Assembly (NCBI GenBank): GCA_041650615.1
Contig: JBAZKU010000001.1
Span: forward strand, 185,216-249,215
DNA length: 64,000 bases
Direction: 5' to 3'
DNA from: Minisyncoccota bacterium
GTDB lineage: Bacteria > Patescibacteriota > Minisyncoccia > Phycocordibacterales > UBA9973
Shown here: piece by piece, positions 1,488 to 62,615 of the stretch
How positions within the stretch are numbered: the stretch's first letter is position 1
Layout: every line of letters begins with the position of its first letter
The notes under the pieces: model-generated
The model's input: only the letters and a program-made list of their open reading frames with translations
Databases searched by the model: none
What the model was told of the DNA's origin: nothing
Translations under genes and position numbers: made by a program

Positions 1488-1560
1488 TGGGCGTGGTAGG
1501 AATCGGACCTACGGCCTCTGTCTTATCAGGACAGCGTTCTACCACTGAACTACACGCCCT
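1488..1560 (-). tRNA. tRNA-Ile (anticodon GAT)
   Basis: Reverse complement GGGCGTGTAGTTCAGTGGTAGAACGCTGTCCTGATAAGACAGAGGCCGTAGGTTCGATTCCTACCACGCCCA. Cloverleaf with anticodon loop CTGATAA. Confidence 0.9.
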
Positions 1561-1567
1561 TATAAAC

Positions 1568-1622
1568 TCGCAGGACAGCATTCGGACTTTATCCGCCTCT
1601 GGCGGAACTGAACTACATGCCC
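1568..1622 (-). pseudogene. truncated 5' copy of tRNA-Ile immediately upstream of the intact gene
   Basis: Minus strand GGGCATGTAGTTCAGT..CTGTCCTG matches the tRNA-Ile acceptor, D-arm and anticodon-stem 5' side. It carries a TCCGCCAGAGGCGGA hairpin insert and has no 3' half. Confidence 0.6.
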
Positions 1623-1696
1623 GAAATCTACACGACCCAATAAAAATATAACAAAAATAGTAATTTTACGCAAATTGCAAAAATTAAAGAACAATA

Positions 1697-1772
1697 TTTT
1701 TGCCGGTACGGATTTTTGAAGCTTAAAAAATCCTGAAATTGGCTCGCCGTCGCTCGCCAAACCCCTTAAAAA
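1697..1772. repeat. ~77-nt intergenic element, copy 1 (hairpin GGATTTTT-N8-AAAAATCC plus direct repeat GGCTCGCC-N3-GCTCGCC)
   Basis: Near-identical to 62539..62615. Both copies lie in the same orientation, upstream on the minus strand of a transcription unit (tRNA-Ile/atp operon here, gap there). Flanks are also similar (about 1684..1790). Confidence 0.8.
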
Positions 1773-3699: not shown

Positions 3700-3817
3700 C
3701 CCGTTAGAGATAGGAAATCTTTAGATTTCCGTTTCTTAATTAAATTCTATTAAATAAACAAATTTCAACCTTACATAAAATAAATCCCGCTAATTAACCA
3801 AAGAAATCTCTAACGGG
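3699..3817. mobile_element. MITE-like element with 13-bp TIRs (tcccgttagagat/atctctaacggga) and a TCAT target-site duplication
   Basis: Perfect TIRs at 3699..3711 and 3805..3817. TSD tcat at 3696..3699 and 3820..3823; the left TSD copy contains the rpmE start codon. AT-rich interior. Confidence 0.75.
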
Positions 3818-5222: not shown

Positions 5223-5954
5223 TTATTTTTCTTCTCCTTTTTCTTCAGTCGCTTCCGTGGCAACTTCAACTTCTCCTCCTTCTTCCTCTTTCTTGCCTTT
5301 CTTTTCAACTTCAATTTCAGACAAATCCGGAGGTGCTACAACTTCTTCTTTTTCTTCTACTTGAAGAACTATGGAAGCTACAACATCATGCTCATTCGCA
5401 ATAACAATAACTCCGGCTGGTAATTTTATATCGGAAATAAAAATCTGGTTTTCTACTGTTTCAAGTTTGGATATGTCAACTTCCAGACTATGCGGAAGAT
5501 CTTTTGGCAATGCTTCAACTTCCACTTCATGAAGAACCTTAACAAGATTCCCTAATCCATTTTTTACAGCATTGGAAATGCCGATAAATTCAAGCGGAAC
5601 TTTAACTTTTATCTTCTTATTCATATCCACAACCAGAAAATCCACATGTATCGGTTCTTCCGTTACCGGATGCACCTGCACTTCGTGAATAAGCGCGTCA
5701 ACCCCGTTAGAGATAGAGGGTCGCTGCGAGCCCTCGCGATCTCTAACGGGGTCAACATTATTATCACCTATAGCTATTTTTATAGTGGAAGATTCTCCAG
5801 CTTCCCGCCAGATTTTTTTAAAATCAACAATTGATATGGAAATAGAAGTAGCAGTCTTGCCTGTTCCATAAAAAACAGCAGGGATTTCCCCTGTTTTCCT
5901 TAAAGTATCCAAATTAATACCTTCATTTCTCTTTTTAGCCTTGATTACAAACAT
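5223..5954 (-). CDS. rplY: 50S ribosomal protein L25 / general stress protein Ctc, with an 18-aa in-frame insertion and acidic C-terminal tail
   Basis: L25 N-domain (AVFYGTGK..) and beta-barrel motifs (HVDFLVVD). The insertion PVRDREGSQRPSISNGVD is encoded by the palindromic element at 5702..5751. Confidence 0.8.
   Translation of the reverse strand: MFVIKAKKRNEGINLDTLRKTGEIPAVFYGTGKTATSISISIVDFKKIWREAGESSTIKIAIGDNNVDPVRDREGSQRPSISNGVDALIHEVQVHPVTEEPIHVDFLVVDMNKKIKVKVPLEFIGISNAVKNGLGNLVKVLHEVEVEALPKDLPHSLEVDISKLETVENQIFISDIKLPAGVIVIANEHDVVASIVLQVEEKEEVVAPPDLSEIEVEKKGKKEEEGGEVEVATEATEEKGEEK
5702..5751. mobile_element. MITE-like element inside rplY: TIRs ccccgttagagat/atctctaacgggg around a GC core, flanked by a gtcaa/tcaac duplication
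   Basis: 13-bp perfect TIRs at 5702..5714 and 5739..5751. The core agagggtcgctgcgagccctcgcg is GC-rich. Element plus TSD is 54 nt, a multiple of 3, and is translated. Confidence 0.75.
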
Positions 5955-8434: not shown

Positions 8435-9487
8435 TTATACCTTTTTCTTTAAAATTTTCACTAATTCATCTTTGAGAGTTTTTACCGATTTATCGTCATA
8501 TAAAGAAAGCGCAAAAACTTTTTTGGGCCTGCCTGCGCAGGCAGGAATCTTCTCAAATTCTTTTTTCTTTTTGTCTATGATTTTTTCATTTTCTACCATG
8601 TCAGATTTTGTAAGAATAATAATTTCATCTTTTTGGGATAGGCCTTCTTCTCCCAAATCTAAATTCTTGTCATATTTTTCCAATTCCTTTCTTACAACCT
8701 TATAATTTTTCATCATCATAGATAAATTTCCCGCCCCGTAGGAAGCTTGCTTTCCTTCGGGGTCAAACGATATCAGATGCGCAATCATTTTAGTTCGTTT
8801 TATATGTCGTAAAAATTTAACACCAAGTCCCTTTCCCGTATTTGCTCCTTCTATCAACCCTGGGATATCGGCAATCGTGTATCCGTAAAAATCGCCCAAA
8901 TTCGGGTCAAGCGTAGTAAATTCATAATCTCCTATTTTTGCCTCAGCGTTTGTTATGACATTGAGCAATGAAGATTTACCGGCATTGGGCAATCCAACTA
9001 ATCCAATATCCGCAAAAAGTTCCAACTCTATATGAAAATTTCCATGTTCTCCTTCCATTCCCGGCCGCCATTCTTTTGGAGTCGTATTGGTAGAACTTTT
9101 AAAATGTTCATTGCCAAACCCCCCATATCCGCCTTTCAAAAGCAAAACTTTTTGCCCTTCTTCCAGTAATTGCCATTGCTCATCCGTTTCCAGGTTAGTG
9201 ATAATGGATCCTATCGGCAATTCTAAAAAAAAGTCATTCCCTTTTTTGCCGTGTAAACTTTTTTTACCTCCATCTTCTCCTCGTCCGGCGCTAAAACTTT
9301 TTTTGGCTTTGTATTTTGAAAGTATATGCACATCGCGGACAGCTTGCGCATAAAAATCTCCGCCACGTCCACCGTCGCCTCCTGCCGGTCCGCCTTTGGG
9401 CACAAATTTTTCTTGTCGCCAGCGAACTACTCCGTCGCCACCGCGACCCGCTTCTGCGTATATTTTTATTTCATCTATGAAGGCCAT
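8435..9487 (-). CDS. obg: GTPase Obg/CgtA
   Basis: Obg fold N-terminus (GGDGGRGG) and G-domain (GLPNAGKSSL, DIPGLIEGA). Carries two in-frame palindromic inserts at 8528..8545 and 8734..8762. Confidence 0.9.
   Translation of the reverse strand: MAFIDEIKIYAEAGRGGDGVVRWRQEKFVPKGGPAGGDGGRGGDFYAQAVRDVHILSKYKAKKSFSAGRGEDGGKKSLHGKKGNDFFLELPIGSIITNLETDEQWQLLEEGQKVLLLKGGYGGFGNEHFKSSTNTTPKEWRPGMEGEHGNFHIELELFADIGLVGLPNAGKSSLLNVITNAEAKIGDYEFTTLDPNLGDFYGYTIADIPGLIEGANTGKGLGVKFLRHIKRTKMIAHLISFDPEGKQASYGAGNLSMMMKNYKVVRKELEKYDKNLDLGEEGLSQKDEIIILTKSDMVENEKIIDKKKKEFEKIPACAGRPKKVFALSLYDDKSVKTLKDELVKILKKKV
8528..8545. repeat. 18-nt perfect GC palindrome cctgcctgcgcaggcagg in frame in obg
   Basis: Self-complementary. 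Encodes PACAGR near the Obg C-terminus. Confidence 0.7.
8734..8762. repeat. 29-nt imperfect palindrome ccccgtaggaagcttgctttccttcgggg (copy 1) in frame in obg
   Basis: Second copy at 60127..60156. Encodes PEGKQASYG. Confidence 0.75.
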
Positions 9488-9586
9488 GTAAAATTAAGAA
9501 AATAAAAATTTTAAGAGTCGTGGGTTCCCTGTCCTCATGGACTCCGAGGGCGAAGGCTCAAAAATTTTTGATTTTCTTAATTTTAC
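9488..9586. repeat. palindromic element spanning exactly from the stop codon of the upstream gene to the obg start codon: 25-bp AT-rich inverted flanks around a GC core (gtgggttccctgtcct..gactccgagggcgaag)
   Basis: Inverted flanks gtaaaattaagaaaat(a)aaaaatttt and the reverse complement. Core is homologous to the cores at 54223..54273 and 31336..31366. Confidence 0.75.
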
Positions 9587-11101: not shown

Positions 11102-11554
11102 TTAGAAGAGGCTGTCAACTACCTCTTTCACCATTCCTCCATCTGCCTTACCTTTTAACTCTTTCATCAATGCCTGCATTAACGCACCCTTTTTTGCGGT
11201 GTCATTAATACCTAATTCTGCTTTTTTGCTTTTCGCTATTTTCTCTATTTCGTCTTTTTCCATCAATTTAGGCAAATAAGTTTCCAATATTACCAATTGT
11301 GCTTCTTCTTCTCTCACTAAATCTTCCCGATTGCCCTTTTTAAACTGTTCTATAGAATCTTTTCTTTGTTTGGCAAGACGATTTATTACCACAAGCGTTT
11401 CTTCGTCAGAAAGTAATTCATTTGGTTTGCGGTTTTTTGAAACAAGTTCGTTGGTAAAACCGGAAACCATAGACCGCAAAGTTTCAAGTAAAACAATATT
11501 TTTTGCCAACATCGCCTCTTTTATACTATTTTTTATTCGTTCATGTAAAAGCAT
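11102..11554 (-). CDS. GatB/YqeY domain-containing protein
   Basis: Helical ~150-aa protein resembling YqeY (MLLHERIKNSIKEAMLAKN..). Start trimmed to an internal Met preceded by TGTTATAAT 6 nt upstream. Confidence 0.7.
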   Translation of the reverse strand: MLLHERIKNSIKEAMLAKNIVLLETLRSMVSGFTNELVSKNRKPNELLSDEETLVVINRLAKQRKDSIEQFKKGNREDLVREEEAQLVILETYLPKLMEKDEIEKIAKSKKAELGINDTAKKGALMQALMKELKGKADGGMVKEVVDSLF

Positions 11555-11590
11555 TGTTCCATTATAACAAAATATGATAAAATAACCAAT

Positions 11591-12316
11591 ATGATTGTAG
11601 AAAAAAAGATCATATTTTTTGATACGGAAACTACGGGCAATACGGAAAAAGATTTTTTGTGCCAAATTGCTTATAAAACGGGCAATGAAAATTTCGTTAG
11701 CCTTTATAAACCTTCAATCAAAGTCCCTCCGGAAACTTCAGCTATACACCATATAACAAATAAAATGTTGGAGGACAAACCTGTTTTCAAAGAAAGCGGT
11801 GATTTTTCAAAAATCAAAGAACTTTTTGAAGATAAAAATTCTGTTATCGTCGCACATAATGCACTTTTTGATTTAATGATTATAAAAAAAGAAGGCATTA
11901 TTCCTGTTAATTTTATTTGCACCCTAAGATTGGCCAGATATTTGGACCCTGAGGAAAAAATAGAAAAATATAATTTGCAATACTTACGATATCTTTTGGA
12001 TATTGAAATAGATGCTACCGCCCATGATGCCCTGGGAGACGTTTTAGTTTTAGAAAAATTATATGAAAGGTTAAAGAAAAAACTGATTGAGCAAGAAAAA
12101 ATAAGTGAAGAAGAAGCGGTGCAAAAAATGATAGAGATTTCTTCCCATCCTTCAATTTTTAAATCCATTAAATTCGGTAAATATAACGGCCGGCAAATAG
12201 AAGAAATAATGAGAGTTGACCGTGGATATCTAGAATGGCTCTTGGCTCAAAAATTGGAAAGCGATCAAATAGATGAGGATTGGATTTATACATTAAAACA
12301 TTACTTAAATAAATAA
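11591..12316 (+). CDS. DEDDh 3'-5' exonuclease (DnaQ-like) with extra C-terminal domain
   Basis: Exo motifs FFDTETTG, VAHNALFDL and HDALGDV. C-terminal FGKYNGRQIEEI..YLEWLL motif. Confidence 0.8.
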   Translation: MIVEKKIIFFDTETTGNTEKDFLCQIAYKTGNENFVSLYKPSIKVPPETSAIHHITNKMLEDKPVFKESGDFSKIKELFEDKNSVIVAHNALFDLMIIKKEGIIPVNFICTLRLARYLDPEEKIEKYNLQYLRYLLDIEIDATAHDALGDVLVLEKLYERLKKKLIEQEKISEEEAVQKMIEISSHPSIFKSIKFGKYNGRQIEEIMRVDRGYLEWLLAQKLESDQIDEDWIYTLKHYLNK

Positions 12317-29794: not shown

Positions 29795-30544
29795 ATGGAA
29801 AACACACAAATAATAATATTAGCCGGAGGAAAAGGGGTTCGCATGAAATCTGATGAACCGAAGGCACTTGTAATGCTCAAAAATAAACCGCTTATAAAGC
29901 ACATTCTTGATACCATTTCCAGTTTGCACTTATCAATCCGACCAATTATCGTAATAGGCCATATGAAAGAGCGCATGAGGGAAGTGTTGGGAAATGACCA
30001 TTTATATGCAGTACAAGATAAACCATTGGGAACCGGACATGCTGTCGCATCAGCTAAGGATAGTGTTCATCCGAACCATAAAACAGTATTGGTGCTATCT
30101 TCAGACCAACCCCTCATTTCAAAAGAAACTATTGAGCGTTTATTAAAAAAACACAACGAAAAAAAGCCGACTATAACCATAGCCACAGTGCTTGTCCCGG
30201 ACTTTGAGGAGTGGAGGTCTGCTTTGAGACATTTTGGTAGGATAATACGTGGAAATGACGGATCAGTGGAAGGTATTATTGAATTCAAAGACGCCACAGA
30301 AAAAGAAAAACTCATAAAAGAACTTAACCCGGCTGTGTATGCCTTTGATTCAGATTGGCTTTGGAAGAATATCAATTTAATAAAAAATGAAAATATGCAA
30401 GGTGAATATTATTTGACCGACCTTATAAAAATGGCTCGTAATCAAAATAAAAAAATTGAAGCAGTGCCAGTGGCAAACCTTATTGAAGGGCTTCAGCCCA
30501 ATACCAGAGAAGAACTTGAAATATTGGAGAAATTAAATACATAA
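29795..30544 (+). CDS. sugar-phosphate nucleotidyltransferase (GlmU N-terminal-like)
   Basis: ILAGGKGVRMKS..KAL NTP-transferase signature; no acetyltransferase domain. Confidence 0.75.
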   Translation: MENTQIIILAGGKGVRMKSDEPKALVMLKNKPLIKHILDTISSLHLSIRPIIVIGHMKERMREVLGNDHLYAVQDKPLGTGHAVASAKDSVHPNHKTVLVLSSDQPLISKETIERLLKKHNEKKPTITIATVLVPDFEEWRSALRHFGRIIRGNDGSVEGIIEFKDATEKEKLIKELNPAVYAFDSDWLWKNINLIKNENMQGEYYLTDLIKMARNQNKKIEAVPVANLIEGLQPNTREELEILEKLNT

Positions 30545-30549
30545 ATTAT

Positions 30550-30577
30550 GCGCGGTTAGCTCAGTTGTAGCGACGCC
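30550..30577 (+). pseudogene. truncated 5' copy (28 nt) of tRNA-Val, 46 nt upstream of the intact gene
   Basis: gcgcggttagctcagttgtagcgacgcc versus gcgcggttagctcagttggtagagcgaccc. A TATAAT-like box lies between the copy and the gene. Confidence 0.65.
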
Positions 30578-30622
30578 TGAAATACGTAGTAAATATAATT
30601 TGTATGATATCATAAAATCAAT

Positions 30623-30695
30623 GCGCGGTTAGCTCAGTTGGTAGAGCGACCCCTTGACGTGGGGTAGGCCACAGGTTCAAGTCCTGTATCGCGCA
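30623..30695 (+). tRNA. tRNA-Val (anticodon GAC)
   Basis: GCGCGGTTAGCTCAGTTGGTAGAGCGACCCCTTGACGTGGGGTAGGCCACAGGTTCAAGTCCTGTATCGCGCA. The tsaD ATG starts 2 nt after the tRNA 3' end. Confidence 0.9.
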
Positions 30696-30696
30696 C

Positions 30697-31842
30697 ATGA
30701 AAATCTTAAGCATTGAAACATCCTGCGATGACACAGGAATAACTTTGATGGAGGCAAAAGGAAGAGTAAATAATGCTTCTTTTAAAATCTTGGATAATGT
30801 CTCAAATTCGCAAATAAAAATCCATGCGGAATATGGCGGAGTATATCCGATGCTTGCAAAACGAGAACATATAAAAAATTTACCGATACTTTTAGAACAA
30901 GTACTTAAAAAGACTAAGCTTGATAAAAAGAAAAAGCCAGTGGATTTAATAGCTGTAACTTATGGACCGGGATTAGAACCAGCACTTTGGACAGGAATAG
31001 TTTTCGCCAAAGAACTGGCAAAAAAGTGGAATATACCGCTTATACCAGTGAATCATATGGAAGGACATATCCTATCGGCATTTGGAAAACACAAAGGAAA
31101 CTTTAAAATCCCCAAAATGGATTTTCCGGTACTATCTCTCCTTGTTTCCGGCGGACACACGGAACTTGTGCTCATAAAAAAATGGATGCAATATAAAATT
31201 ATCGGCGAAACATTGGATGATGCAGCCGGAGAAGCTTTTGATAAGGTAGCTAGGATGATGGGTTTCCCCTATCCCGGCGGACCAAAAATTTCAGAGTTGG
31301 CAGAAAAAGGGAGGGAGAAAATAGTTTTTAAAGGGACTCCGCAGGGCGACGGCCCGAGGACCGAGCAAATTTTTCAGCAGAGAAATTGCGACCCTTTAAA
31401 AATTGATTTTCTTCCTCCCTTTCTCCCCCGCCCGATGATTTACAGTAAAAATTTTGATTTTTCTTTTTCGGGACTGAAAACCGCCGTGCTTTATTTAATT
31501 AAAAAAATCGAGAAATTGAACGAGGAAACCAAAGAAAAAATCGCTTTGGAATTTGAAAATGCAGTAGTAGAAACTCTTGTCTATAAAACAATAAAGGCAA
31601 AAGAAAAATACAAGGTAAAAACTATCATTGTGGCCGGCGGGGTTTCTTGCAATAAGCACTTGCAAAAACAAATGAAAAAAACTATTGGCAAAGATATTGA
31701 ACTTTTTTTCCCGGAAAAAGAACTAACGGGAGATAATTCAATAATGGTAGGCATAGCCGGATATTTGAATTATCAAAAAAATAAAAATAAAATTCTTAAA
31801 ATAGACGTTATAAAGGCAAAAGGTAATTTACGCTTTAAATAG
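30697..31842 (+). CDS. tsaD: tRNA N6-adenosine threonylcarbamoyltransferase TsaD, with a ~31-aa in-frame insertion
   Basis: MKILSIETSCDDT.. and HMEGH metal motif. The insertion KGTPQGDGPRTEQIFQQRNCDPLKIDFLPPF lies before the conserved LPRPM..DFSFSGLKT. Confidence 0.85.
   Translation: MKILSIETSCDDTGITLMEAKGRVNNASFKILDNVSNSQIKIHAEYGGVYPMLAKREHIKNLPILLEQVLKKTKLDKKKKPVDLIAVTYGPGLEPALWTGIVFAKELAKKWNIPLIPVNHMEGHILSAFGKHKGNFKIPKMDFPVLSLLVSGGHTELVLIKKWMQYKIIGETLDDAAGEAFDKVARMMGFPYPGGPKISELAEKGREKIVFKGTPQGDGPRTEQIFQQRNCDPLKIDFLPPFLPRPMIYSKNFDFSFSGLKTAVLYLIKKIEKLNEETKEKIALEFENAVVETLVYKTIKAKEKYKVKTIIVAGGVSCNKHLQKQMKKTIGKDIELFFPEKELTGDNSIMVGIAGYLNYQKNKNKILKIDVIKAKGNLRFK
31326..31422. repeat. GC-rich insertion in tsaD, related to the gactccgagggcg core family, with flanking ttttaaaggg/ccctttaaaa inverted repeat
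   Basis: ggactccgcagggcgacggcccgagg resembles the cores at 9513..9559 and 54223..54273. Followed by a pyrimidine tract. Confidence 0.5.
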
Positions 31843-31868
31843 CCAATATTCTATGATATTATTTAAGG

Positions 31869-41324: not shown

Positions 41325-41403
41325 CCCGTTAGAAATTTATGCTTAATTATTAATACTCAACTTTAATATCCCGTTTTCAGTATTTGTGTTATTTCTAACG
41401 GGA
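41324..41403. mobile_element. MITE-like element with TIRs tcccgttagaaat/atttctaacggga and a 5-bp TCCAT target-site duplication
   Basis: TIRs at 41324..41336 and 41391..41403. TSD tccat at 41320..41324 and 41404..41408; the left copy contains the eno start codon. Confidence 0.75.
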
Positions 41404-44150: not shown

Positions 44151-45992
44151 TTAATTGTTTTCCGTGCGCATCATTTTTAGGAACACGTCTTGCGGGATGT
44201 TTACTCGCCCGCGTTCTTTCATTTTCTTTTTACCTTTCTTTTGTTTTTCGCGAAGTTTCATTTTGCGAGTGATATCTCCTCCATACATATGCTGAGTAAC
44301 GTCTTTTTTCATACCGGAAAGAGTGCGAGAAGAAATAATCCGCCCTAAAGCTTTGCCTTGGATTTTCAAAGTAAACATTTGCCGAGGTAAGATACTTTCT
44401 AATTTAATAACTGCTTTTTCTGCTTCCTCCCCTGCTCTCTTTTTAGCGATAACTCTGGAAAAAGCCGGTATAACTTCATTGGCCACCAGAAGATCAAGCC
44501 GAGTGACATTTGCCTCGCGCATGTCATCCATTTCATAAGAGATAGACCCATAACCGGATGAAACACTTTTTAATTCATCAAAAAAATTGCGCATAAGCTC
44601 GCGCAACGGCATCTTGACGGAAATGGACGAGCGATTATTTCCAAAATTATCTGTTTCGCCTATCTCCGCTTCGTGATCAAAAAGAAGTTGCATAATATTA
44701 CCGAGATATTTTACCGGGGTGATTATTTTTAATTTTACCCATGGTTCCATTACGGTTTCTATCTCTCCATCATCTGGAAAGTGATATGGAGAATAGACTT
44801 TTTCTTTTTTGCCTTTTTTTGTCGTGACTTCGTAAGTGATAGAAGGCGTAGTTATGACCAATTTTAAATTAAATTCTCGTTTCAATCTCTCCGTAATAAT
44901 TTCCAAATGAAGCATTCCCAAGAAACCACACCTGAAACCGCGTCCGAGAGACCCGCTTGATTCTTCTTCATAAGAAAAAGAAGAGTCAGAAAGTTTTAAT
45001 TTTCCCAAAGCCAGTTTGAGTTCTGAAAAATCGTCCGCATTTTCTGGAAAAACAGATGCCCAAACAACAGGCATAGGCTGCATATACCCCGGCAGCGCAG
45101 GCAACGGATTTTTTTCTTTGGTAATAGTATCTCCGACAGAAGCTATTCCGGGTCTTTTTATGCCCGTAACAATATAGCCTGTATCCCCCGCTGAAAGAAA
45201 ATCGCGCAGAGTTTCTTCCGGCGAAAAAGTGCCAACTTCCAAAGAATTGAATTTTTCGCCCGAGACTGAAAAAATCAAACTTTCTCCTTTTCTGACTGTG
45301 CCGTCCAATAATCTGATAAAAATTATCACTCCTCTATGATTTGAATATTTAAAATCAAAAACAAGCGCGCGTAAAATGTTGTCCCTCGACGAGTTCGCCT
45401 CGCTTCCGCTAAGGTGAAGCGGGTAACTTTCCCTGGGAGATGGAATACGTTTTACAATTTCATTTAAAAGATTTTCCACTCCCTCGCCTGTGCGTCCGGA
45501 AACTAGAAGTATCTCATTAGGATTGCAACCTAGAAGGTCTATGACCTCTTTTTTTACCTCTTCTACCCGAGCCAATGGCGAATCAATTTTAGAGAGCACT
45601 GGGATGATTTTAAGGCCTCCCTCGCGCGCCATATTAAGCGTAGTAAGGGTTTGAGCCTGCACACCCTGTGTTGCATCAACCAGTAAAATAGAGCCTTCTA
45701 CGGCCTTTAAAGCGCGAGAAACTTCGTAAGAAAAATCTATATGCCCAGGGGTATCTATAAGGTTTAAAACGAAGGATGGTCCTTCGTTTTTAGGTGTATA
45801 TTCCATTCTGACAGGTTGCATTTTAATAGTAATCCCGCGTTCGCGTTCAAGTTCCATAGTATCAAGAACTTGGTCCCGCATTTTACGTTCAGGAATGGTA
45901 TGCGTAATTTCCAACATCCTGTCCGCCAAAGTGCTTTTTCCATGATCTATGTGCGCTATAATACTAAAATTTCTGATATGCCTTAAATCCAT
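44151..45992 (-). CDS. lepA: elongation factor 4 (LepA)
   Basis: IRNFSIIAHIDHGKSTL G-domain and LepA-specific C-terminal domain. Confidence 0.95.
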   Translation of the reverse strand: MDLRHIRNFSIIAHIDHGKSTLADRMLEITHTIPERKMRDQVLDTMELERERGITIKMQPVRMEYTPKNEGPSFVLNLIDTPGHIDFSYEVSRALKAVEGSILLVDATQGVQAQTLTTLNMAREGGLKIIPVLSKIDSPLARVEEVKKEVIDLLGCNPNEILLVSGRTGEGVENLLNEIVKRIPSPRESYPLHLSGSEANSSRDNILRALVFDFKYSNHRGVIIFIRLLDGTVRKGESLIFSVSGEKFNSLEVGTFSPEETLRDFLSAGDTGYIVTGIKRPGIASVGDTITKEKNPLPALPGYMQPMPVVWASVFPENADDFSELKLALGKLKLSDSSFSYEEESSGSLGRGFRCGFLGMLHLEIITERLKREFNLKLVITTPSITYEVTTKKGKKEKVYSPYHFPDDGEIETVMEPWVKLKIITPVKYLGNIMQLLFDHEAEIGETDNFGNNRSSISVKMPLRELMRNFFDELKSVSSGYGSISYEMDDMREANVTRLDLLVANEVIPAFSRVIAKKRAGEEAEKAVIKLESILPRQMFTLKIQGKALGRIISSRTLSGMKKDVTQHMYGGDITRKMKLREKQKKGKKKMKERGRVNIPQDVFLKMMRTENN

Positions 45993-47717: not shown

Positions 47718-47778
47718 TTGATTAGGTTCTAGATTCTAGGTTCTAGCAACTAGTCACTAACACCTAGAAACCAATTTG

Positions 47779-54655: not shown

Positions 54656-55474
54656 TTATATTAAAAATTCTATTACGTCGCCATCTTTGACTATATAATC
54701 CTTGCCTTCGGTTCGCACCCAACCTTTTTCTCTGGCTTTTACGAAAGAACCAGCTTCTATAAGCTTCTCATAAGCTACTACTTCTGCTCGAATAAATTTA
54801 TCTCGAAAATCGGTATGAATAGATTTACCGGCAATGGGCGCTGTGGCTCCACGAATCGTAGTCCAGGCACGAGATTCATCTTCTCCAGTGGTAAAAAACG
54901 TAATTAAATTTAATAAATCATAACCAGCCTGAATAAGTTTATCTAACCCTGTGCCGAAAATTGGGTCCACTTCTATATAGGGTCCGGGAAGTTTGGAAAT
55001 GAAATCTTTTTTTATATTTTCCGCCGCTTCGGAAGTGTTTAAAACATAAAGCGTCGGTTTTTTAATCCCCGCTTGTTCCAATTCAAAGTTTATCACTTCT
55101 ATATCAAAAAGCGGATCAATTTTGTCGTGCACATGAATCATCGTTTTATCTTCAAAAATTCGCACCACTTCAATAATTGCATCCACTTCGCGAATATGCG
55201 AGAGAAATTTATTGCCAAGCCCCGCGCCCTCTGATGCTCCCTTTACCAAGCCGGCAATATCCACAAATTCAACTACTGCCGGAATGGTTTTTTTTGATTT
55301 GGACATTTCTGAAAGTTTGATTAAACGTTCATCCGGCACCGGCACAATGCCCACTGACGGGTCAATGGTGCAAAAAGGATAATTCTCCGCCGGGACACTT
55401 TTTTTTGTCAGCGCGTTAAAAAGCGTGGATTTTCCGACGTTCGGTAAACCTACAATTCCTATACTTAATGACAT
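54656..55474 (-). CDS. ychF: ribosome-binding ATPase YchF (short form)
   Basis: [28 protein letters not shown]. Confidence 0.8.
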
Positions 55475-55513: not shown

Positions 55514-56971
55514 TTATTCATCTATTATCTCAAAATCGCTTCCTGGTATACTTGAAACAGATTTTCTATTGCGATTGCGGATAAAATAGGTTGCGCTTGC
55601 ACTAATTCCAAGAAAAGCAAATAAGCCGAAAATTCCGTATATAAAATTATCTTTCGCATTGGAAATATTCTCTTCACTCTTTACAGCTACTGCTCCTAAA
55701 TTTTCAGAAGAAACTTGCGGAGTTTCTTTGGGTGTTTCTATTGTTGGTTTAGCCACTGCAATGTTTTTATTGGTATTTGACTCCGATATTTTTGATGTAG
55801 GGGGTAAATAATTAAAGATAATTTCCCCTTGCGGATTTAGTAATTTTAAAGCGTTTTTATCAAAAACAGAAAAACCGGTAATTTTAGACGATAAAATGAT
55901 TTTCTTTTTTGGCCCTAAAATTGTGTTATTAGGTAAAGTAAAAATTTTTCCATTTCCCGCAAGAATCCATTTTGAAAGATCGGCATCATATGAAGTATTA
56001 TTTAAAATTTCCACAAAGAAATCTTTTTCATCCCCGACGCTGGATATTGAAATATCCGCCTTTATCACTTTAATAATTATCTTGTCGGACGCGTCAGGAT
56101 TTAGAGAATTATTATTTTGAAAATATTCCAAGGCGACAGTATATTCTCCTTCATAGAGAAAGATATGCGTGAGTTTTGTCGGATTATTGACTCCTGTTTC
56201 TTTTGAATCACCATCTCCAAAATTCCAGAAATATTTGCCATAAGAAAGCGGTTCGTTAGAATATCCGGTAGCAGTGGCACTAAACTCTATCGGTATTCCC
56301 ATAAAAGAAAACGTTTTGGTGGAAATTTTTGTTTTAATTTTTGAAGTTTCAGTAGTCTTTGTTTTTGCAGTTATTGTTGAATCTGAGGAATCGGCATTTC
56401 CGGCCACATAATTATCGCTTGATGTTGCGCTGTCATCAGTTGTATTATTATCGGTACTATTTGTTTGCGAAATTTGATTTTCCGCTTTTGGCGTAGGAGA
56501 AGAAACAGTCCAACTGCTTCCTATCTTTTGAATACTTTCCCCAACAATTGGATTAGGCGCGCAAGTTCCATCACAATCACTGGCACTTCCCCAACCAATT
56601 TTATCAACTATTTCTTGATCTGAATTCTTTAATTGAATTGTATTTGATTCGGTAAGGGTTAAATTATCCAAAATAATATCGGCATTATCCATTGCACTTT
56701 TTGAAATTAAAAAATAGCTATTAGCATTTATTGTCTTACTTTCAAAATGAGTTTTTGAAACGAGAGAACCAAAACTACTACCTGTCTGAGTTTTTCTTTG
56801 AATATACCAATTAGTTAAATCAACTACTGAATCACCTGAATTATAAAGTTCAATAAATCTTTCTTCTGTGGGATTTAATTGAACCTCATTAATTATCACA
56901 CTTGCTTGGGCAATAGTGCACCCAAAAAACAAAAAAATTCCTGTCAAAATAGGGATTATCTTCCTAGGCAT
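55514..56971 (-). CDS. secreted lamin-tail-domain (LTD) protein with C-terminal membrane anchor
   Basis: Signal peptide; VIINEVQLNP..FIELYN LTD signature (a second LTD near FVEILNNTSY); Ser/Thr-rich linker; C-terminal TM helix. Confidence 0.6.
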   Translation of the reverse strand: MPRKIIPILTGIFLFFGCTIAQASVIINEVQLNPTEERFIELYNSGDSVVDLTNWYIQRKTQTGSSFGSLVSKTHFESKTINANSYFLISKSAMDNADIILDNLTLTESNTIQLKNSDQEIVDKIGWGSASDCDGTCAPNPIVGESIQKIGSSWTVSSPTPKAENQISQTNSTDNNTTDDSATSSDNYVAGNADSSDSTITAKTKTTETSKIKTKISTKTFSFMGIPIEFSATATGYSNEPLSYGKYFWNFGDGDSKETGVNNPTKLTHIFLYEGEYTVALEYFQNNNSLNPDASDKIIIKVIKADISISSVGDEKDFFVEILNNTSYDADLSKWILAGNGKIFTLPNNTILGPKKKIILSSKITGFSVFDKNALKLLNPQGEIIFNYLPPTSKISESNTNKNIAVAKPTIETPKETPQVSSENLGAVAVKSEENISNAKDNFIYGIFGLFAFLGISASATYFIRNRNRKSVSSIPGSDFEIIDE

Positions 56972-57012
56972 AGTTTATTTAAATTATTTTTATAATATGA
57001 TATGATTATAGC

Positions 57013-58014
57013 ATGAAAAAAATAGATTTTCTTGCTATTGGGGATATTGTGGTAGACGCATTTATAAAAATAAAAGACGCGCATGTAAATTGCAAATTGG
57101 ACACAAATGCCTGCGAACTCTGTTTTCGTTTTAGAGATAAAGTGCCTTATGAATCGGTAAATGTAATTCCGGCTGTCGGCAATAGCGCAAATGCCGCAGT
57201 TTGCGCTGCTAGGCTCGGGCTGAATACGGCTTTTATGACAAATATGGGCGATGATCAGAATGGAAAAGACTGCTTGGCAGTATTGGAAAAAGAAAAAATT
57301 GACACAACGTTTGTAAAAATAGAAAAAAATAAAAGTACGAATTACCACTATGTCCTTTGGTATGATATTGACCGCACTATTTTGGTAAAACATCAAGAAT
57401 ATGAACGCGAATGGCCAGACACTAAAGAAGCCAACACTCCAGCTTGGATTTATTTAACTTCTTTAGGAGAAGATTCCCTGCCTTTTCATAATGAGATATC
57501 AAATTATTTAAAAAAACATCTGGAAGTAAAATTAGCTTTTCAACCGGGCACTTATCAAATGAAATTTGGCACCGAAAATTTAAAAGATATTTATGCGTGT
57601 ACGGAAATCTTCTTTTGCAATCTTGAGGAGGCTGAAAGAATCTTGAAAATTGAAAATAAAGATGTTTTAACACTATCAAAAGGCATTGCGGCTTTGGGCC
57701 CCAAAATGGTTGTAATAAGTGACGGACCGAAAGGCGCTTATTTTTATAAAGATGGAGAATTATGGCATAATCCCATTTATCCGGATATTGCTCCACCCAC
57801 AGACCGCACCGGAGCCGGAGATGCTTTTTCTTCCACTTTTACCGCAGCTTTGGCTTTAGGAAAATCACCCCTTGAGGCATTTTCTTGGGGACCGATAAAT
57901 TCAATGTCCGTAATCCAATATGTCGGAGCGCGAGAAGGATTGCTAAATCGTGAAAAATTGGAAGAGTATTTAAGGACCGCCCCGGAAAGTTATAAGGTTA
58001 AAAAAATAAGCTAA
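57013..58014 (+). CDS. PfkB-family carbohydrate kinase
   Basis: Ribokinase-like fold with the C-terminal DRTGAGDAF motif. Confidence 0.8.
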   Translation: MKKIDFLAIGDIVVDAFIKIKDAHVNCKLDTNACELCFRFRDKVPYESVNVIPAVGNSANAAVCAARLGLNTAFMTNMGDDQNGKDCLAVLEKEKIDTTFVKIEKNKSTNYHYVLWYDIDRTILVKHQEYEREWPDTKEANTPAWIYLTSLGEDSLPFHNEISNYLKKHLEVKLAFQPGTYQMKFGTENLKDIYACTEIFFCNLEEAERILKIENKDVLTLSKGIAALGPKMVVISDGPKGAYFYKDGELWHNPIYPDIAPPTDRTGAGDAFSSTFTAALALGKSPLEAFSWGPINSMSVIQYVGAREGLLNREKLEEYLRTAPESYKVKKIS

Positions 58015-60879: not shown

Positions 60880-60956
60880 CCCATTAAAAAATTAAACTAA
60901 TAAAAAACTTCTCCAGAATATCTAACCCCGCTGATTTTTTAACGGGACAAGTATTT

Positions 60957-61437: not shown

Positions 61438-62529
61438 TTAAATAGTTCCTCCTGTTTTTATAACATGCTCGACCAATGTATAGGCATACCCCATTTCATT
61501 ATCATACCAACCCAATACTTTTACCAAATTGCCATCAACTACGCGGGTCATTTCCAAGTCGGCAATGGATGCATGCGATTCCCCTAAAATATCAGAAGAA
61601 ACCAATGGTTCCTTGGTAACAGCAAATACTTTTTCCCAACGCTTGTCTTTTGACGCTTTTTCTAAAATCGCATTAACTTCTTCTTTGGTGGTATTTTTCT
61701 TTGAAATAAAAGTGACATCTACAATTGACCCAGCTACTACCGGCACGCGAACAGAAATACCATCAAATAATCCTTTTAATTCCGGAAAAGCCTCCGTCAC
61801 AGCGATAGCTGCACCGGTTGAACTTGGAACTATGTTTTGCGCAGCCGCGCGTCCCTCGCGCAAATCCTTTTTACTTGGCCCGTCCACAAGCGCTTGAGAA
61901 GCTGTATATCCATGAACTGTATTTAAAATCGCTTTTTCTATCCCCAAAGCTTCATGTAAAATTGCAATTAGAGGGCTTGCGGCATTGGTGGTACAAGATG
62001 CATTAGAAGTAATATCGCAAGTACCGAATTTATTTTCATTAATTCCCAACAATATTGTTTCTCCTTTTACACTTCCCTCATTTCCCCCGCCTAGACTCGC
62101 GCTAGTCGAGGCTGGTTTAGAAGGCGCAGAGATCACAACTTTTTTTGCACCTTGTTCAATATGAAATTTTGCCTTGTCATAAGAAGTAAACAGTCCGGTT
62201 GATTCAACCACCACATCAATATTCAAATCTTTCCAAGGAAGTTTCGTGGTGTCTTTTTCAGAAATGAATTTAATCTTTTTTCCGTCAATTATCAAATCAG
62301 CGCCGGAAACTTCTACGGAATGATTCCAATTTCGGTAAACAGTATCATGACGCAATAAGTAAGCTAAACTTTCTATGGAACCTAAATCATTTACTGCCAC
62401 TATCTCAAGCTCGGGTTTTTCCCAGGCTACTTTTAAAAATGCCCTGCCTATCCTGCCAAAACCATTAATAGATATTTTGATCTTTTTCATAATAATATTA
62501 TAGCACATAATATATGTCCAAAAAGGCAA
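61438..62529 (-). CDS. gap: glyceraldehyde-3-phosphate dehydrogenase with an ~18-aa in-frame insertion
   Basis: NGFGRIGR Rossmann motif and catalytic SNASCTTN. The insertion PASTSASLGGGNEGSVKG before the conserved block is encoded by the repeat at 62086..62130. Confidence 0.9.
   Translation of the reverse strand: MPFWTYIMCYNIIMKKIKISINGFGRIGRAFLKVAWEKPELEIVAVNDLGSIESLAYLLRHDTVYRNWNHSVEVSGADLIIDGKKIKFISEKDTTKLPWKDLNIDVVVESTGLFTSYDKAKFHIEQGAKKVVISAPSKPASTSASLGGGNEGSVKGETILLGINENKFGTCDITSNASCTTNAASPLIAILHEALGIEKAILNTVHGYTASQALVDGPSKKDLREGRAAAQNIVPSSTGAAIAVTEAFPELKGLFDGISVRVPVVAGSIVDVTFISKKNTTKEEVNAILEKASKDKRWEKVFAVTKEPLVSSDILGESHASIADLEMTRVVDGNLVKVLGWYDNEMGYAYTLVEHVIKTGGTI
62086..62130. repeat. 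GC-rich repeat, family cccgcctWgact.., in frame in gap
   Basis: cccgcctagactcgcgctagtcgaggctggt matches 312..342 (in the atpB tail) at 28 of 31 positions. Confidence 0.8.
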
Positions 62530-62538
62530 AGAATCAAA

Positions 62539-62615
62539 TTTTTGCCGGTACGGATTTTTTGAAGCTTAAAAAATCCTGAAATTGGCTCGCCGTCGCTCGC
62601 CAAACCCCTTAAAAA
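62539..62615. repeat. ~77-nt intergenic element, copy 2 (hairpin plus GGCTCGCC direct repeats), between gap and dnaE
   Basis: About 97% identical to 1697..1772. Followed on the minus strand by TGTGCTATAAT 6 nt before the gap ATG. Confidence 0.8.

Follow-up and report, generated by a model that had tools for sequence, protein, structure and literature searches.

The window analysed here, a stretch of 64,000 nucleotides from a Minisyncoccota bacterium (contig JBAZKU010000001.1), contains a tsaD gene whose ATG is separated from the discriminator base of the preceding tRNA gene by a single nucleotide, and a second junction of the same form joins a tRNA-Ile gene to atpZ, the first gene of atpZ-atpB-atpE (Table 1). 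The 3' half of the tRNA holds no promoter-like site, and a 1-nt spacer is too short for a promoter or a Shine-Dalgarno (SD) sequence. How, then, does the mRNA of such a gene acquire its 5' end, and how is its start codon recognised? An earlier note on this DNA had proposed that tRNAs, -10 boxes and long hairpins lying directly before start codons all serve to create leaderless messages. Our analysis indicates that leaderless mRNA is probably a main mode of expression in this lineage of Parcubacteria (Nomurabacteria-like, CPR), the 5'-terminal AUG being provided either by a promoter or by tRNA abutment. The palindromes at the start codons of rpmE, eno and rpe have to be set apart from this; they are MITE-like insertions.

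Table 1. Positions in the window of the tRNA junctions, promoter boxes and palindromic elements
Feature	Position	Strand	Remarks
Likely promoter box TGTTATATT	1645..1653	-	tRNA-Ile/atp transcript; promoter role deduced from the lineage promoter profile
tRNA-Ile(GAT)	1488..1559	-	74 bits; followed by C1487
atpZ (atpI-like), 87 aa	1223..1486	-	ATG 1486-1484; PF09527 (ATPase_gene1), 34 bits
Likely promoter TATGATATCAT	30603..30613	+	TRTG + n + TATCAT; 9 nt before the tRNA-Val 5' end
tRNA-Val(GAC)	30623..30695	+	ARAGORN; Rfam RF00005, 68 bits; discriminator A30695; no CCA encoded
Single C	30696	+	between discriminator and ATG; tRNA position 74
tsaD, 381 aa	30697..31842	+	start ATG 30697 (MKILSIETSCDDT...); N-terminal peptide expected with this start, MKILSIETSCDDTGITLMEAK
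gap box TGTGCTATAAT	62497..62507	-	6 nt (attatt) before ATG 62490
gap	61438-62490	-	start fixed by Gp_dh_N profile and N-terminus MKKIKISINGFGRIGR
yqeY box TGTTATAAT	11561..11569	-	6 nt before ATG 11554
yqeY	11102-11554	-	in the longer ORF the YqeY profile match opens with residue 42
Box TGATAAAAT	11575-11583		divergent exonuclease gene, ATG 11591; back-to-back with the yqeY box
Box TGATATTAT	31854..31862	+	6 nt before ATG 31869 of a 717-aa class I aminoacyl-tRNA synthetase gene
Further promoter-abutted starts	5202, 5954, 6945, 8426, 14228, 22833, 25841, 29372, 35543, 40056, 43614, 44012, 45992, 53674, 55474, 57013, 62651		
Element copy, 118 nt (CCCGTTAGAGAT...ATCTCTAACGGG)	3700..3817	-	directly before rpmE ATG 3699; predicted hairpin, -32 kcal/mol
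Flanks of the rpmE copy	3823-3818, 3699-3694		ATGAAT and ATGAAA, respectively
Element copy, 78 nt	41325..41402	-	before eno ATG 41324; ATGGAT at both flanks
Degenerate element copy (CCCGTTAAAAAAT...ATTTTTTAATGGG)	60880..60946	-	directly before rpe ATG 60879
Distinct palindromic element	9488..9586	-	directly before obg ATG 9487

The arms of the palindromes before rpmE, eno and obg end exactly at position -1 of the ATG, as the earlier note had described. Comparison of the palindromes revealed one MITE-like element, CCCGTTAGA...TCTAACGGG, of which the rpmE, eno and rpe palindromes represent copies; it is non-coding and bounded by TIRs of 12-14 nt (CCCGTTAGARRY and its complement). In all, ten copies were found, 48-118 nt long, in the window and in the related loci L002, L005, L006, L021, L050 and L086. 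Nine of the ten abut a start codon, with the 3' arm ending at -1 of the ATG, and usually ATGNN is duplicated, flanking six to seven copies. Direct repeats of 5-6 nt (ATGAA, ATGGAT, ATGAG, ATGAGT, GTTGAC) flank seven copies, while the flanks of three have just TG in common. One copy lies in frame within the rplY coding sequence. Empty sites were identified as well: window position 31869 corresponds to a site filled in L006 (11101-11177), and the tsaD junction of the window to a site filled in L002. The TIRs, small size, lack of coding sequence, dispersed copies, target duplication and filled and empty sites are those of a MITE, and no transposase gene with the element's ends was detected in the ~840 kb examined. 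A search of Rfam at relaxed thresholds returned no credible family for the palindromes or for an 80-nt repeat. At the eno copy, the upstream ATG lies 4 nt past the stop codon of the preceding gene.

The Correia elements of Neisseria are MITEs located in gene 5' regions, and their hairpins are cut by RNase III. The present element resembles them in being short and non-coding, in its TIRs, direct repeats, multiple copies and filled and empty sites, and in its likely co-transcription with the downstream gene, where a long hairpin is possible. Unlike Correia elements, it sits exactly on the start codon in nearly all copies, its duplication includes the ATG and one copy has inserted in frame into the gene of a ribosomal protein; an autonomous parent was not found.

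By this precedent, the palindromes at obg, rpmE and eno could be RNA-processing devices, as the earlier note had held, with an RNase III-type cut freeing the mRNA at or near the AUG. The 3' arm ending at -1, both in the nine CCCGTTAGA copies and in the obg element, would suit this role, as would the stable predicted stems (-14 to -38 kcal/mol), the retention of RNase III by 90% or more of CPR genomes (PMC12641178) and the fact that eno, tsaD and similar genes still need expression despite the insertion. We nevertheless consider it unlikely. Insertion itself accounts for the exact abutment, given the duplicated ATGNN, and relatives show empty sites; RNase III cuts inside stems and not at their base, cleavage at the in-frame rplY copy would destroy the mRNA, and the stop positions of the upstream short ORFs are inconsistent between copies. 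For rpmE, eno and rpe, the palindromes are better described as mobile insertions than as processing devices, and cleavage at the stem base is conceivable at most. Two other candidate functions were rejected. An outward promoter in the 3' end of the element is contradicted by the hexamers standing where its -10 box would have to be (ATTTCT, ATCTCT, ACTTCT, GCTTCT), which are without the -11 A, and a fixed termination-reinitiation mechanism using the short ORFs begun by the duplicated ATG does not agree with stops located anywhere from 4 to ~94 nt before the real ATG in no consistent frame.

The element before obg is a different one. Its 16-nt perfect arms lie within a ~27-bp stem, the 5' arm spans the stop codon of the upstream gene, and the predicted fold reaches -36.4 kcal/mol (z = -5.2). 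No Rfam family matched it, and its core recurs in L103 between atpE and atpF.

Both tRNA junctions reported in the earlier note were found as described. A 1-nt spacing to the ATG occurs in two of the four window tRNAs with a co-directional downstream gene. Punctuation of this kind is limited to 2 of the 62 window genes. The arrangement is conserved among genomes with 63-79% protein identity: ...A-C-ATG(tsaD) is identical in seven (window, L003, L004, L006, L007, L123, L126) and tRNA-Ile-C-ATG(atpZ) in nine (window, L044, L045, L048, L053, L061, L085, L092, L104). A promoter scan of the plus strand from 30400 to 30744 revealed no internal tRNA-Val promoter for tsaD. The T-arm/acceptor sequence cannot give a well-placed TAnnnT box, and in L006, where this sequence differs, a -10 box is absent too; an internal promoter was rejected on these grounds. 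With no promoter between them, each tRNA and its downstream gene would constitute one transcription unit. The putative tRNA-Val promoter, TATGATATCAT, fits the lineage promoter profile and the 8-10 nt box-to-tRNA spacing given below. An alternative TATAAT is present at 30594-30599, also upstream of tRNA-Val. On the tRNA-Ile side, a 79-nt leader starts 6 nt 3' of TGTTATATT and contains degenerate tRNA-like repeats.

We propose that tsaD is co-transcribed behind tRNA-Val(GAC), and atpZ with the atp operon behind tRNA-Ile(GAT), and that one endonucleolytic cut would make both the 3' end of the tRNA and the 5' end of the mRNA. After a cut behind C74 the mRNA would begin exactly with AUG, and after a cut behind the discriminator it would carry a 1-nt leader, C30696 being either the last templated tRNA base or that leader. 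A CCA-adding enzyme would next complete the tRNA, and the mRNA would be translated by the leaderless (70S-type, AUG-dependent) pathway. Processing of the tRNA to leave a leaderless or nearly leaderless mRNA, as the earlier note supposed, is the most economical reading of an abutment that is conserved, involves true starts and leaves no place where a promoter fits.

A cut after C74 is favoured because the tRNA genes of the lineage, almost without exception, template one C and not CCA. A C directly follows the discriminator in 128 of 130 tRNA genes (8/8 in the window, 84/86 in the set that includes the tsaD loci and 44/44 for tRNA-Ile in the atp loci), and full CCA is encoded in only ~12. The templated C74 is usually followed by A in these genes. 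Propionibacterium acnes, which has no RNase Z, provides a parallel: its endonucleolytic tRNA cuts were mapped within CCA, between C74 and C75 (PMC3848588). The likeness lies in the many leaderless mRNAs and in a tRNA left ending at C74, to be completed by nucleotidyl transferase, with no obvious RNase Z in P. acnes. In contrast, P. acnes genes template full CCA and its cut is not tied to an mRNA 5' end, whereas here C74 alone is templated, and the cut site is a deduction where that of P. acnes was mapped. The processed mRNA would bear a 5' monophosphate, and RNase J, a 5'-to-3' exonuclease generally kept in CPR genomes (PMC12641178), could destabilise it.

The abutment could instead be a neutral end point of compaction, with tsaD and atpZ translated from unprocessed co-transcripts by SD-independent internal initiation, or inefficiently from fragments. 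CPR genomes are heavily streamlined, and a 1-nt tRNA-ATG spacer, once formed, is hard to alter; its conservation may be partly a frozen accident, since either the tRNA or the ORF is harmed by nearly any indel. In its predicted fold, the tRNA-Val-tsaD co-transcript keeps the cloverleaf and leaves the AUG and the next 15 nt unpaired. Spacers of 1, 4, 5, 7 and 10 nt and other architectures occur in relatives, indicating that the exact position is not essential. Since relatives get by with 4-10 nt between tRNA and ATG, for atpZ even with a small hairpin and a U run, an exact 5' AUG is not strictly required. In favour of processing, these variant spacers have neither a -10 box nor an SD, the distance is likewise short, just 5-12 nt, where a tRNA adjoins some other ORF in relatives, and the AUG region is unpaired in the predicted fold described above. 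Against neutrality, tRNA excision is obligatory for function, so that each productive maturation would yield a 5'-(C)AUG mRNA, and the same A-C-ATG geometry is found in two unrelated gene pairs involving important genes (tsaD and the whole atp operon). Many genes of the genome also appear clearly expressed from a 5'-terminal AUG, and in relatives with a distant or missing tRNA, the same tsaD ATG is preceded at 6-9 nt by a -10 box, a leaderless-type promoter. Neutral compaction is, in our judgement, distinctly unlikely as the explanation. Under the processing model that we prefer, promoter and tRNA would be interchangeable routes to a 5'-terminal AUG.

Ojala, Montoya and Attardi reportedly described tRNA punctuation of mitochondrial transcripts in 1981. 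In both systems the tRNA abuts the next start codon, excision would leave no or almost no leader, and translation would proceed without SD pairing. Unlike mitochondria, the present case involves a free-living-type bacterial genome with ordinary promoters, in which only some genes are punctuated, with the tRNA at the 5' side only and one templated C74 before the AUG, and it is known from sequence alone. The thrU-tyrU-glyT-thrT-tufB operon of Escherichia coli is a tRNA-mRNA operon. It likewise places tRNAs and a protein gene on one promoter and separates them by RNA processing; there, however, an SD-bearing leader lies between the last tRNA and the ORF, where here the spacer is 1 nt. A passage of PMC4633059 also refers to mitochondrial tRNA punctuation.

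The second and far more frequent route is a promoter set on the start codon. An extended -10 box, TRTGnTAnnnT, was found 6-7 nt 5' of the ATG in at least 16 window genes, or in ~21 when looser boxes are counted, and a promoter box lies 6-10 nt ahead of the ATG in about one third of window genes. Leaderless genomes whose start codons stand 6-8 nt from a Pribnow box form an established class (PMC6028130), and ~21 of the 62 window genes have their -10 box localised near the start codon in this way. When ATGs opening ORFs of at least 80 codons were counted by their offset from TGnTAnnnT, the window gave seven at 6 nt and seven at 7 nt; other offsets mostly gave 0-1, apart from a few, in frame with the peak, that gave 2-3. 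Adding 20 related loci raised the counts to 46 ATGs at 6 nt and 34 at 7 nt, GTG (3 and 3) and TTG (0 and 5) remaining at background at these offsets, and the peak was missing in 198 kb of non-CPR control loci (counts 0 and 1). The spacing of -10 boxes to start codons in the window and the 20 related loci is thus sharp and specific to ATG. Of the two examples given in the earlier note, the yqeY arrangement was confirmed; the gap arrangement is real as well, its coordinates being ~45 nt off (62507-62497, not 62536-62552). Frequent leaderless mRNAs, as proposed there, have strong statistical support, and they would extend far beyond these two genes.

Several properties identify the box as a sigma-70 extended -10 promoter. 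In 133 aligned sites, the positions not used for selection, -5 to -2, showed T in 67%, A in 54% (plus G in 18%), T in 62% and G in 56%, and a weak -35 TTG was seen 17 bp upstream of the box, with T in 54% at -23. The box also occurs ahead of non-coding genes: it lies 8-10 nt before the mature 5' end in 30 of 131 tRNAs, and at 6 nt in none. Because of this location before mature tRNA 5' ends, the box is a promoter by nature and not a ribosome-binding site, as far as sequence can establish. Transcription from a sigma-70-type extended -10 promoter 6-7 nt before an ATG would begin with the A of that codon, and many genes would own such a promoter even when packed 5-28 nt behind a neighbour.

It is this close packing, observed for some of the box-bearing window genes, that would speak for another function, since a motif preceding genes 5-28 nt behind the previous gene is the GeneMarkS-2 criterion for a ribosome-binding site (PMC6028130). 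The TATAAT-like motif would then be a non-SD ribosome-binding signal on leadered mRNAs, of the Bacteroidetes type (GeneMarkS-2 group B). Such a role is highly improbable and was rejected: the TRTG extension and the weak -35 TTG at 17-bp spacing are specific to promoters, and the motif stands at a fixed distance ahead of tRNA genes, which are untranslated. Moreover, the 2-3 nt difference between the tRNA and ATG spacings is the one expected if transcription starts ~7 nt after the box, and at 6-7 nt the motif is followed by ATG alone, not GTG or TTG, in line with the AUG dependence known for leaderless translation. With the box taken as a promoter, the nearest match is GeneMarkS-2 group C (Actinobacteria, Deinococcus-Thermus; PMC6028130), which shares the box 6-8 nt before the start, the minority of SD-led genes and the preference for AUG. 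The present genome differs from that group in its lineage, its AT richness and its TRTG-extended promoters, in having boxes before closely packed genes as well, and in its apparently very low use of SD sequences.

This low use was at odds with the earlier statement that most plus-strand small ORFs have canonical SD sequences. A GGAG-type SD at a usable distance (5-14 nt) precedes just ~4-6 of the 62 genes, namely orf131, orf133, pyrF, atpE and perhaps rpiB, and ~18 window genes that overlap the preceding gene or sit within 6 nt of its stop codon have none. About half of the 16S sequences of Parcubacteria have no anti-SD motif (PMC9297842). SDs or leaders of 18-33 nt do occur in certain window genes (the RRM protein, the LTD protein and orf78), so the ribosome presumably handles leadered mRNAs as well.

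Leaderless expression as such is already known; the putative tRNA punctuation in bacteria and a start-codon-associated MITE are new forms. A literature search, weak as evidence owing to its incomplete coverage, returned no leaderless mRNAs in CPR/Patescibacteria, and, with the same incomplete coverage, no bacterial tRNA-punctuated leaderless mRNAs and no C74-only tRNA genes. A wider proposal is offered only tentatively, and we lean against it: Parcubacteria might use mitochondria-like tRNA punctuation routinely, with an endonuclease cutting after C74, preferentially before A, so that the tRNA needs CA only and the mRNA opens precisely at AUG for an SD-independent ribosome, alongside a start-codon-homing MITE whose target duplication regenerates the ATG and would keep genes expressed behind a hairpin. 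CPR/Patescibacteria form a large part of bacterial diversity and have reduced ribosomes, and a promoter or tRNA set on the AUG is a concrete, testable answer to how translation may be initiated in Parcubacteria. The tRNA punctuation and the genes with C74 but without CCA point to an uncharacterised tRNA 3'-end pathway, and the MITE suggests that initiation can occur straight after a stable hairpin without an SD.

That the real starts are internal Mets, as in public calls (tsaD 364 aa), is scarcely credible: at least seven public tsaD protein clusters do open at Met18 (MEAKG...) and tsaD has in-frame alternative starts at codons 16-17, but the 17 residues thereby skipped (MKILSIETSCDDTGITL) are kept in all relatives and in distant bacteria and match the TsaD equivalog profile at its positions 1-15, and beginning atpZ at its next in-frame start would lose WWKP, a conserved motif, together with some of the PF09527 match. 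Downstream starts were rejected for both genes on this N-terminal conservation and profile alignment. TIGR03723 matched TsaD at 353 bits (cut-off 296), with profile position 1 at residue 3, and the N-terminus M[KR][IL]L[SAG]IETSCD is kept in 23 of 23 related tsaD loci and in L123-L126. For atpZ, the WWKP motif is N-terminal and no alternative start lies ahead of ATG 1486. The truncated public clusters bear out the earlier remark that this arrangement is not commonly annotated: gene callers that expect a ribosome-binding site or forbid contact with a tRNA clip conserved N-termini, and across thousands of CPR genomes they probably misplace many further starts as well. In the products of promoter-abutted genes, the matches to Pfam and NCBIfam profiles set in within residues 1-10, indicating that these starts are right.

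The earlier note had described start codons that directly abut tRNA 3' ends, -10 boxes or palindromes, and all three kinds of contact were confirmed in the sequence (see table). The window is AT-rich (G+C 34-38%) with densely packed genes, and contains 8 tRNA genes and no rRNA. Its nearest TsaD relatives are metagenome-assembled genomes of Candidatus Nomurabacteria, Parcubacteria, Paceibacterota and Patescibacteria, which places the window in a CPR bacterium of the Parcubacteria. The yqeY box stands 6 nt before its ATG as claimed, and the gap box is equally real, although it had first been placed about 45 nt off.

Features of the window and their positions
Feature	Position	Strand	Detail
tRNA-Val(GAC)	30623-30695	+	Rfam 68 bits
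tRNA-Val/tsaD junction	30695-30697	+	discriminator A30695, C30696, tsaD ATG at 30697
tRNA-Val partial copy	30550-30586	+	37 nt, GCGCGGTTAGCTCAGTTG, then diverging
tRNA-Ile(GAT)	1488-1559	-	then C1487, ATG 1486
Stretch ahead of tRNA-Ile	1560-1638	-	79 nt
gap box TGTGCTATAAT	62507-62497	-	6 nt, then ATG 62490
yqeY box TGTTATAAT	11569-11561	-	6 nt, then ATG 11554
Exonuclease gene box	11575-11583		opposite strand to yqeY box
tRNA genes with box 8-10 nt upstream	13944, 28529, 30623, 36076
Palindrome arms ending at -1 of ATG	3700, 41325, 9488		rpmE, eno, obg
rplY element copy	5703-5750	-	48 nt, inside rplY (5223-5954)
ggggtttggcgagcgacggcgagccaatttcaggattttttaagcttcaaaaatccgtaccgg repeat	62535-62610	-	upstream of gap promoter
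ggggtttggcgagcgacggcgagccaatttcaggattttttaagcttcaaaaatccgtaccgg repeat	1696-1772	-	upstream of tRNA-Ile promoter
CTAG-rich stretch (ctaggtgttagtgactagttgctagaacctagaatctagaacctaatcaa)	47718-47770	-	directly ahead of murJ ATG
YchF, LepA, Obg genes	54656-55474, 44151-45992, 8435-9487	-
yqeY/exonuclease gene	11554-11591		divergent, 36 bp apart
LTD-domain gene/pfkB	56971-57013		divergent, 41 bp apart

We measured box spacing without assumed gene starts, taking each TGnTAnnnT on both strands and recording the offset of an ATG opening an ORF of 80 codons or more. In the window, spacings of 6 and 7 nt each scored 7, and spacings of 8, 9 and 10 nt scored 2, 1 and 3; other offsets mostly gave 0-1, except for 2 each at 22 and 25, which share the frame of the peak. 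With 20 Patescibacteria loci included, ATG was counted 46 times at 6 nt and 34 times at 7 nt, while GTG (3 and 3) and TTG (0 and 5) were at background, and 198 kb of control non-CPR loci from the same query gave 0 and 1. Leaderless initiation depends on AUG, and the restriction of the spacing to ATG fits this dependence. Among 62 curated window genes with starts backed by Pfam, about 21 have a strong -10 box at 6-10 nt, 2 abut a tRNA, 4 abut a palindrome, about 4-6 have a GGAG-type SD, about 18 overlap the previous stop codon or lie within 6 nt of it, and about 12 are unclear. Several boxes (fba, gatB and the DUF5671 gene) fall inside the gene ahead, at its 3' end.

To characterize the motif, we aligned 133 sites selected solely by TAnnnT, 6-7 nt and ATG. 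The unselected upstream positions were T in 67%, A in 54% (G in 18%), T in 62% and G in 56% of sites, with a weak TTG 17 bp upstream. TRTG is the '-16' extension of sigma-70 promoters. The same box also stands 8-10 nt ahead of the mature tRNA 5' end in 30 of 131 tRNA genes, with none at 6 nt. Because tRNAs are not translated, these results indicate that the motif is a promoter, and a non-SD ribosome-binding site is ruled out by the TRTG profile and the occurrence before tRNA genes. Transcription starting about 7 nt after the box would put the 5' end on the A of the ATG for an mRNA and 1-3 nt ahead of the body for a tRNA, which predicts the observed shift of 2-3 nt between the two classes; tRNAs with such short leaders would be minimal RNase P substrates.

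Leaderless expression via promoter-abutted ATGs is strongly supported by these sequence patterns, from which we infer the transcription start, cleavage and mode of translation. An established class of genomes, described mainly for Actinobacteria and Deinococcus-Thermus, has its Pribnow boxes 6-8 nt ahead of start codons (PMC6028130), and this lineage adds a putative member. In Parcubacteria, the anti-SD motif is often absent, and an alternative mechanism was not proposed (PMC9297842). The literature searched, with incomplete coverage, yielded no report of leaderless mRNAs in CPR/Patescibacteria or of bacterial tRNA-punctuated leaderless mRNAs, and no description of tRNA genes templating C74 only. 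The new variants here are tRNA-C-AUG junctions kept across genomes, tRNA genes that template C74 alone, and a MITE associated with start codons.

The tRNA-Val/tsaD abutment is present as first described, with a single C between discriminator and ATG. The TsaD N-terminus is MKILSIETSCDDT; M[KR][IL]L[SAG]IETSCD opens the protein in 23/23 related loci compared and in 4 further loci, and the equivalog profile aligns its position 1 to residue 3. By these alignments, the abutting ATG can be taken as certain to be the tsaD start. Public gene calls skipped this ATG in at least 7 protein clusters, and call P0001, for an identical tsaD on a 598,563-bp contig, is 17 residues too short. A promoter scan of the plus strand within tRNA-Val revealed no promoter-like site, and the predicted co-transcript fold keeps the cloverleaf and leaves the AUG region unpaired. 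Exact A-C-ATG was found in 7 genomes (the window and related loci L003, L004, L006, L007, L123 and L126), with TsaD identity of 65-74% in loci where it was reported. Close variants have spacers of 5 nt (L125), 7 nt (L124) and 10 nt (L005) with neither -10 box nor SD ahead of tsaD. Further out among the relatives, where tsaD has only a remote tRNA or none, an extended -10 box lies 6-9 nt ahead of the same ATG (L013, L016, L020, L021, L026, L038, L039 and L041). Since a tRNA or a box adjoins this ATG depending on the relative, tRNA and promoter are interchangeable neighbours of one start codon. The partial tRNA-Val copy lies directly 3' of the NTP-transferase stop codon, 37 nt upstream of the real tRNA, and L002 has related tRNA-Val fragments (acgcctgaaatacg) in the same place.

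The claimed abutment of tRNA-Ile and an atpI-like ORF showed the same geometry. The ORF (87 aa) matches PF09527 (ATPase_gene1, AtpZ/AtpI-like) and precedes atpB and atpE, and its next in-frame start would cost the conserved WWKP motif. Exact tRNA-Ile-C-ATG(atpZ) occurs in 8 metagenome loci (L044, L045, L048, L053, L061, L085, L092, L104; AtpB identity 63-79%), and in 2 others the spacer is 4 or 7 nt long. In other relatives, atpZ is preceded by its own TATAAT box or by a small hairpin and U run; in L083, L097 and L118, a short GC hairpin (aaggc...gcctt) and U-rich run reach from tRNA-Ile to the ATG and look like a terminator or attenuator ahead of the atp operon. Additional tRNA-ORF junctions in relatives have spacers of just 5-12 nt and ORFs of 249-498 aa. 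Downstream of the TGTTATATT box and ahead of tRNA-Ile, the 5' part of this tRNA recurs in two degenerate copies (gggtcgtgtagatttc, gggcatgtagttcagtt), accompanied by a small hairpin (ccgccagaggcgg); this stretch looks like a tRNA-like leader or a tandem-duplication remnant.

We examined the base after the discriminator and found C in 8/8 window tRNAs (CA in 6/8), in 84/86 tRNAs of the window and related tsaD loci, and in 44/44 tRNA-Ile of atp loci. Combined (window, L002-L021, L043-L122), C was present in 128 of 130 tRNA genes and CA in about 70%, and full CCA was templated in only about 12. As genome C is about 18%, this near-universal C74 indicates selection at position 74. The simplest reading is that C74 would be kept in the mature tRNA, with the 3' cut after it, and such a cut would yield an mRNA beginning exactly at AUG in both junctions. 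Propionibacterium acnes lacks RNase Z, and many of its mRNAs are leaderless; there a tRNA cut was mapped between C74 and C75 (PMC3848588). Mitochondria offer the nearest analogue of both junctions, in the tRNA punctuation model.

The palindrome arms likewise end where the earlier note had put them. Those before rpmE and eno are both copies of a single element whose terminal inverted repeats measure 12-14 nt, CCCGTTAGA[GA]AT ... AT[CT]TCTAACGGG. Ten copies of this element, 48-118 nt long, were found: in the window before rpmE, eno and rpe (degenerate) and inside rplY; before tsaD in L002, hsp20 in L005 (degenerate) and a 717-aa synthetase gene in L006; and in L021, L050 and L086. It adjoins an ORF ATG in 9/10 copies. 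Direct repeats of 5-6 nt flank 7/10, and 6 of these 7 are ATGNN(N) (ATGAA, ATGGAT, ATGAG, ATGGA, ATGAGT, ATGGA). Empty sites were found for two copies: window gatattatttaaggATGGAC versus gatattatttgaggATGGAT[element]ATGGAA in L006, and window tRNA-Val-C-ATG versus tRNA-Val-C-ATGAGT[element]ATGAGA in L002. Because of these flanks and empty sites, the sequence identifies the element as mobile and MITE-like, and its exact contact with the ATG is an outcome of insertion itself. The rplY copy, flanked on both sides by GTTGAC, lies in frame within the bL25 ribosomal protein's L25p domain and adds 18 residues (VDPVRDREGSQRPSISNGVD), so that 82 positions of the Pfam profile are matched over 103 residues.

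Of the two ATG copies, the upstream one stays next to the original promoter or tRNA and begins a short ORF. The stop of this ORF lies 4 to ~94 nt ahead of the real ATG, so no uniform reinitiation design is apparent. Behind predicted element hairpins of -14 to -38 kcal/mol, eno, tsaD and the synthetase gene have no SD; RNase III cleavage and ribosome delivery via the short ORF are both possible routes to their translation. RNase III is kept in most CPR genomes (PMC12641178). A separate palindromic element precedes obg (16-nt perfect arms, stem ~27 bp, -36.4 kcal/mol, z = -5.2), and its core recurs in L103 between atpE and atpF. Neither element matched an Rfam family.

Several further observations concern the control regions. 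The divergent yqeY and exonuclease genes share a very short control region in which their -10 boxes almost touch. The CTAG-rich stretch is repetitive and may represent either an operator or a repeat, and murJ has no -10 box at leaderless distance from its ATG. A TGATAAAAT box lies 10 nt ahead of the ychF ATG; YchF is reported to modulate leaderless-mRNA translation in E. coli, in work cited by PMC12641178. The ~80-nt intergenic ggggtttggcgagcgacggcgagccaatttcaggattttttaagcttcaaaaatccgtaccgg repeat had no match in Rfam. It recurs in related genomes (L080, L107, L006, L051, L072), often between atpE and atpF, and forms two hairpins, with paired changes between copies in the first stem.
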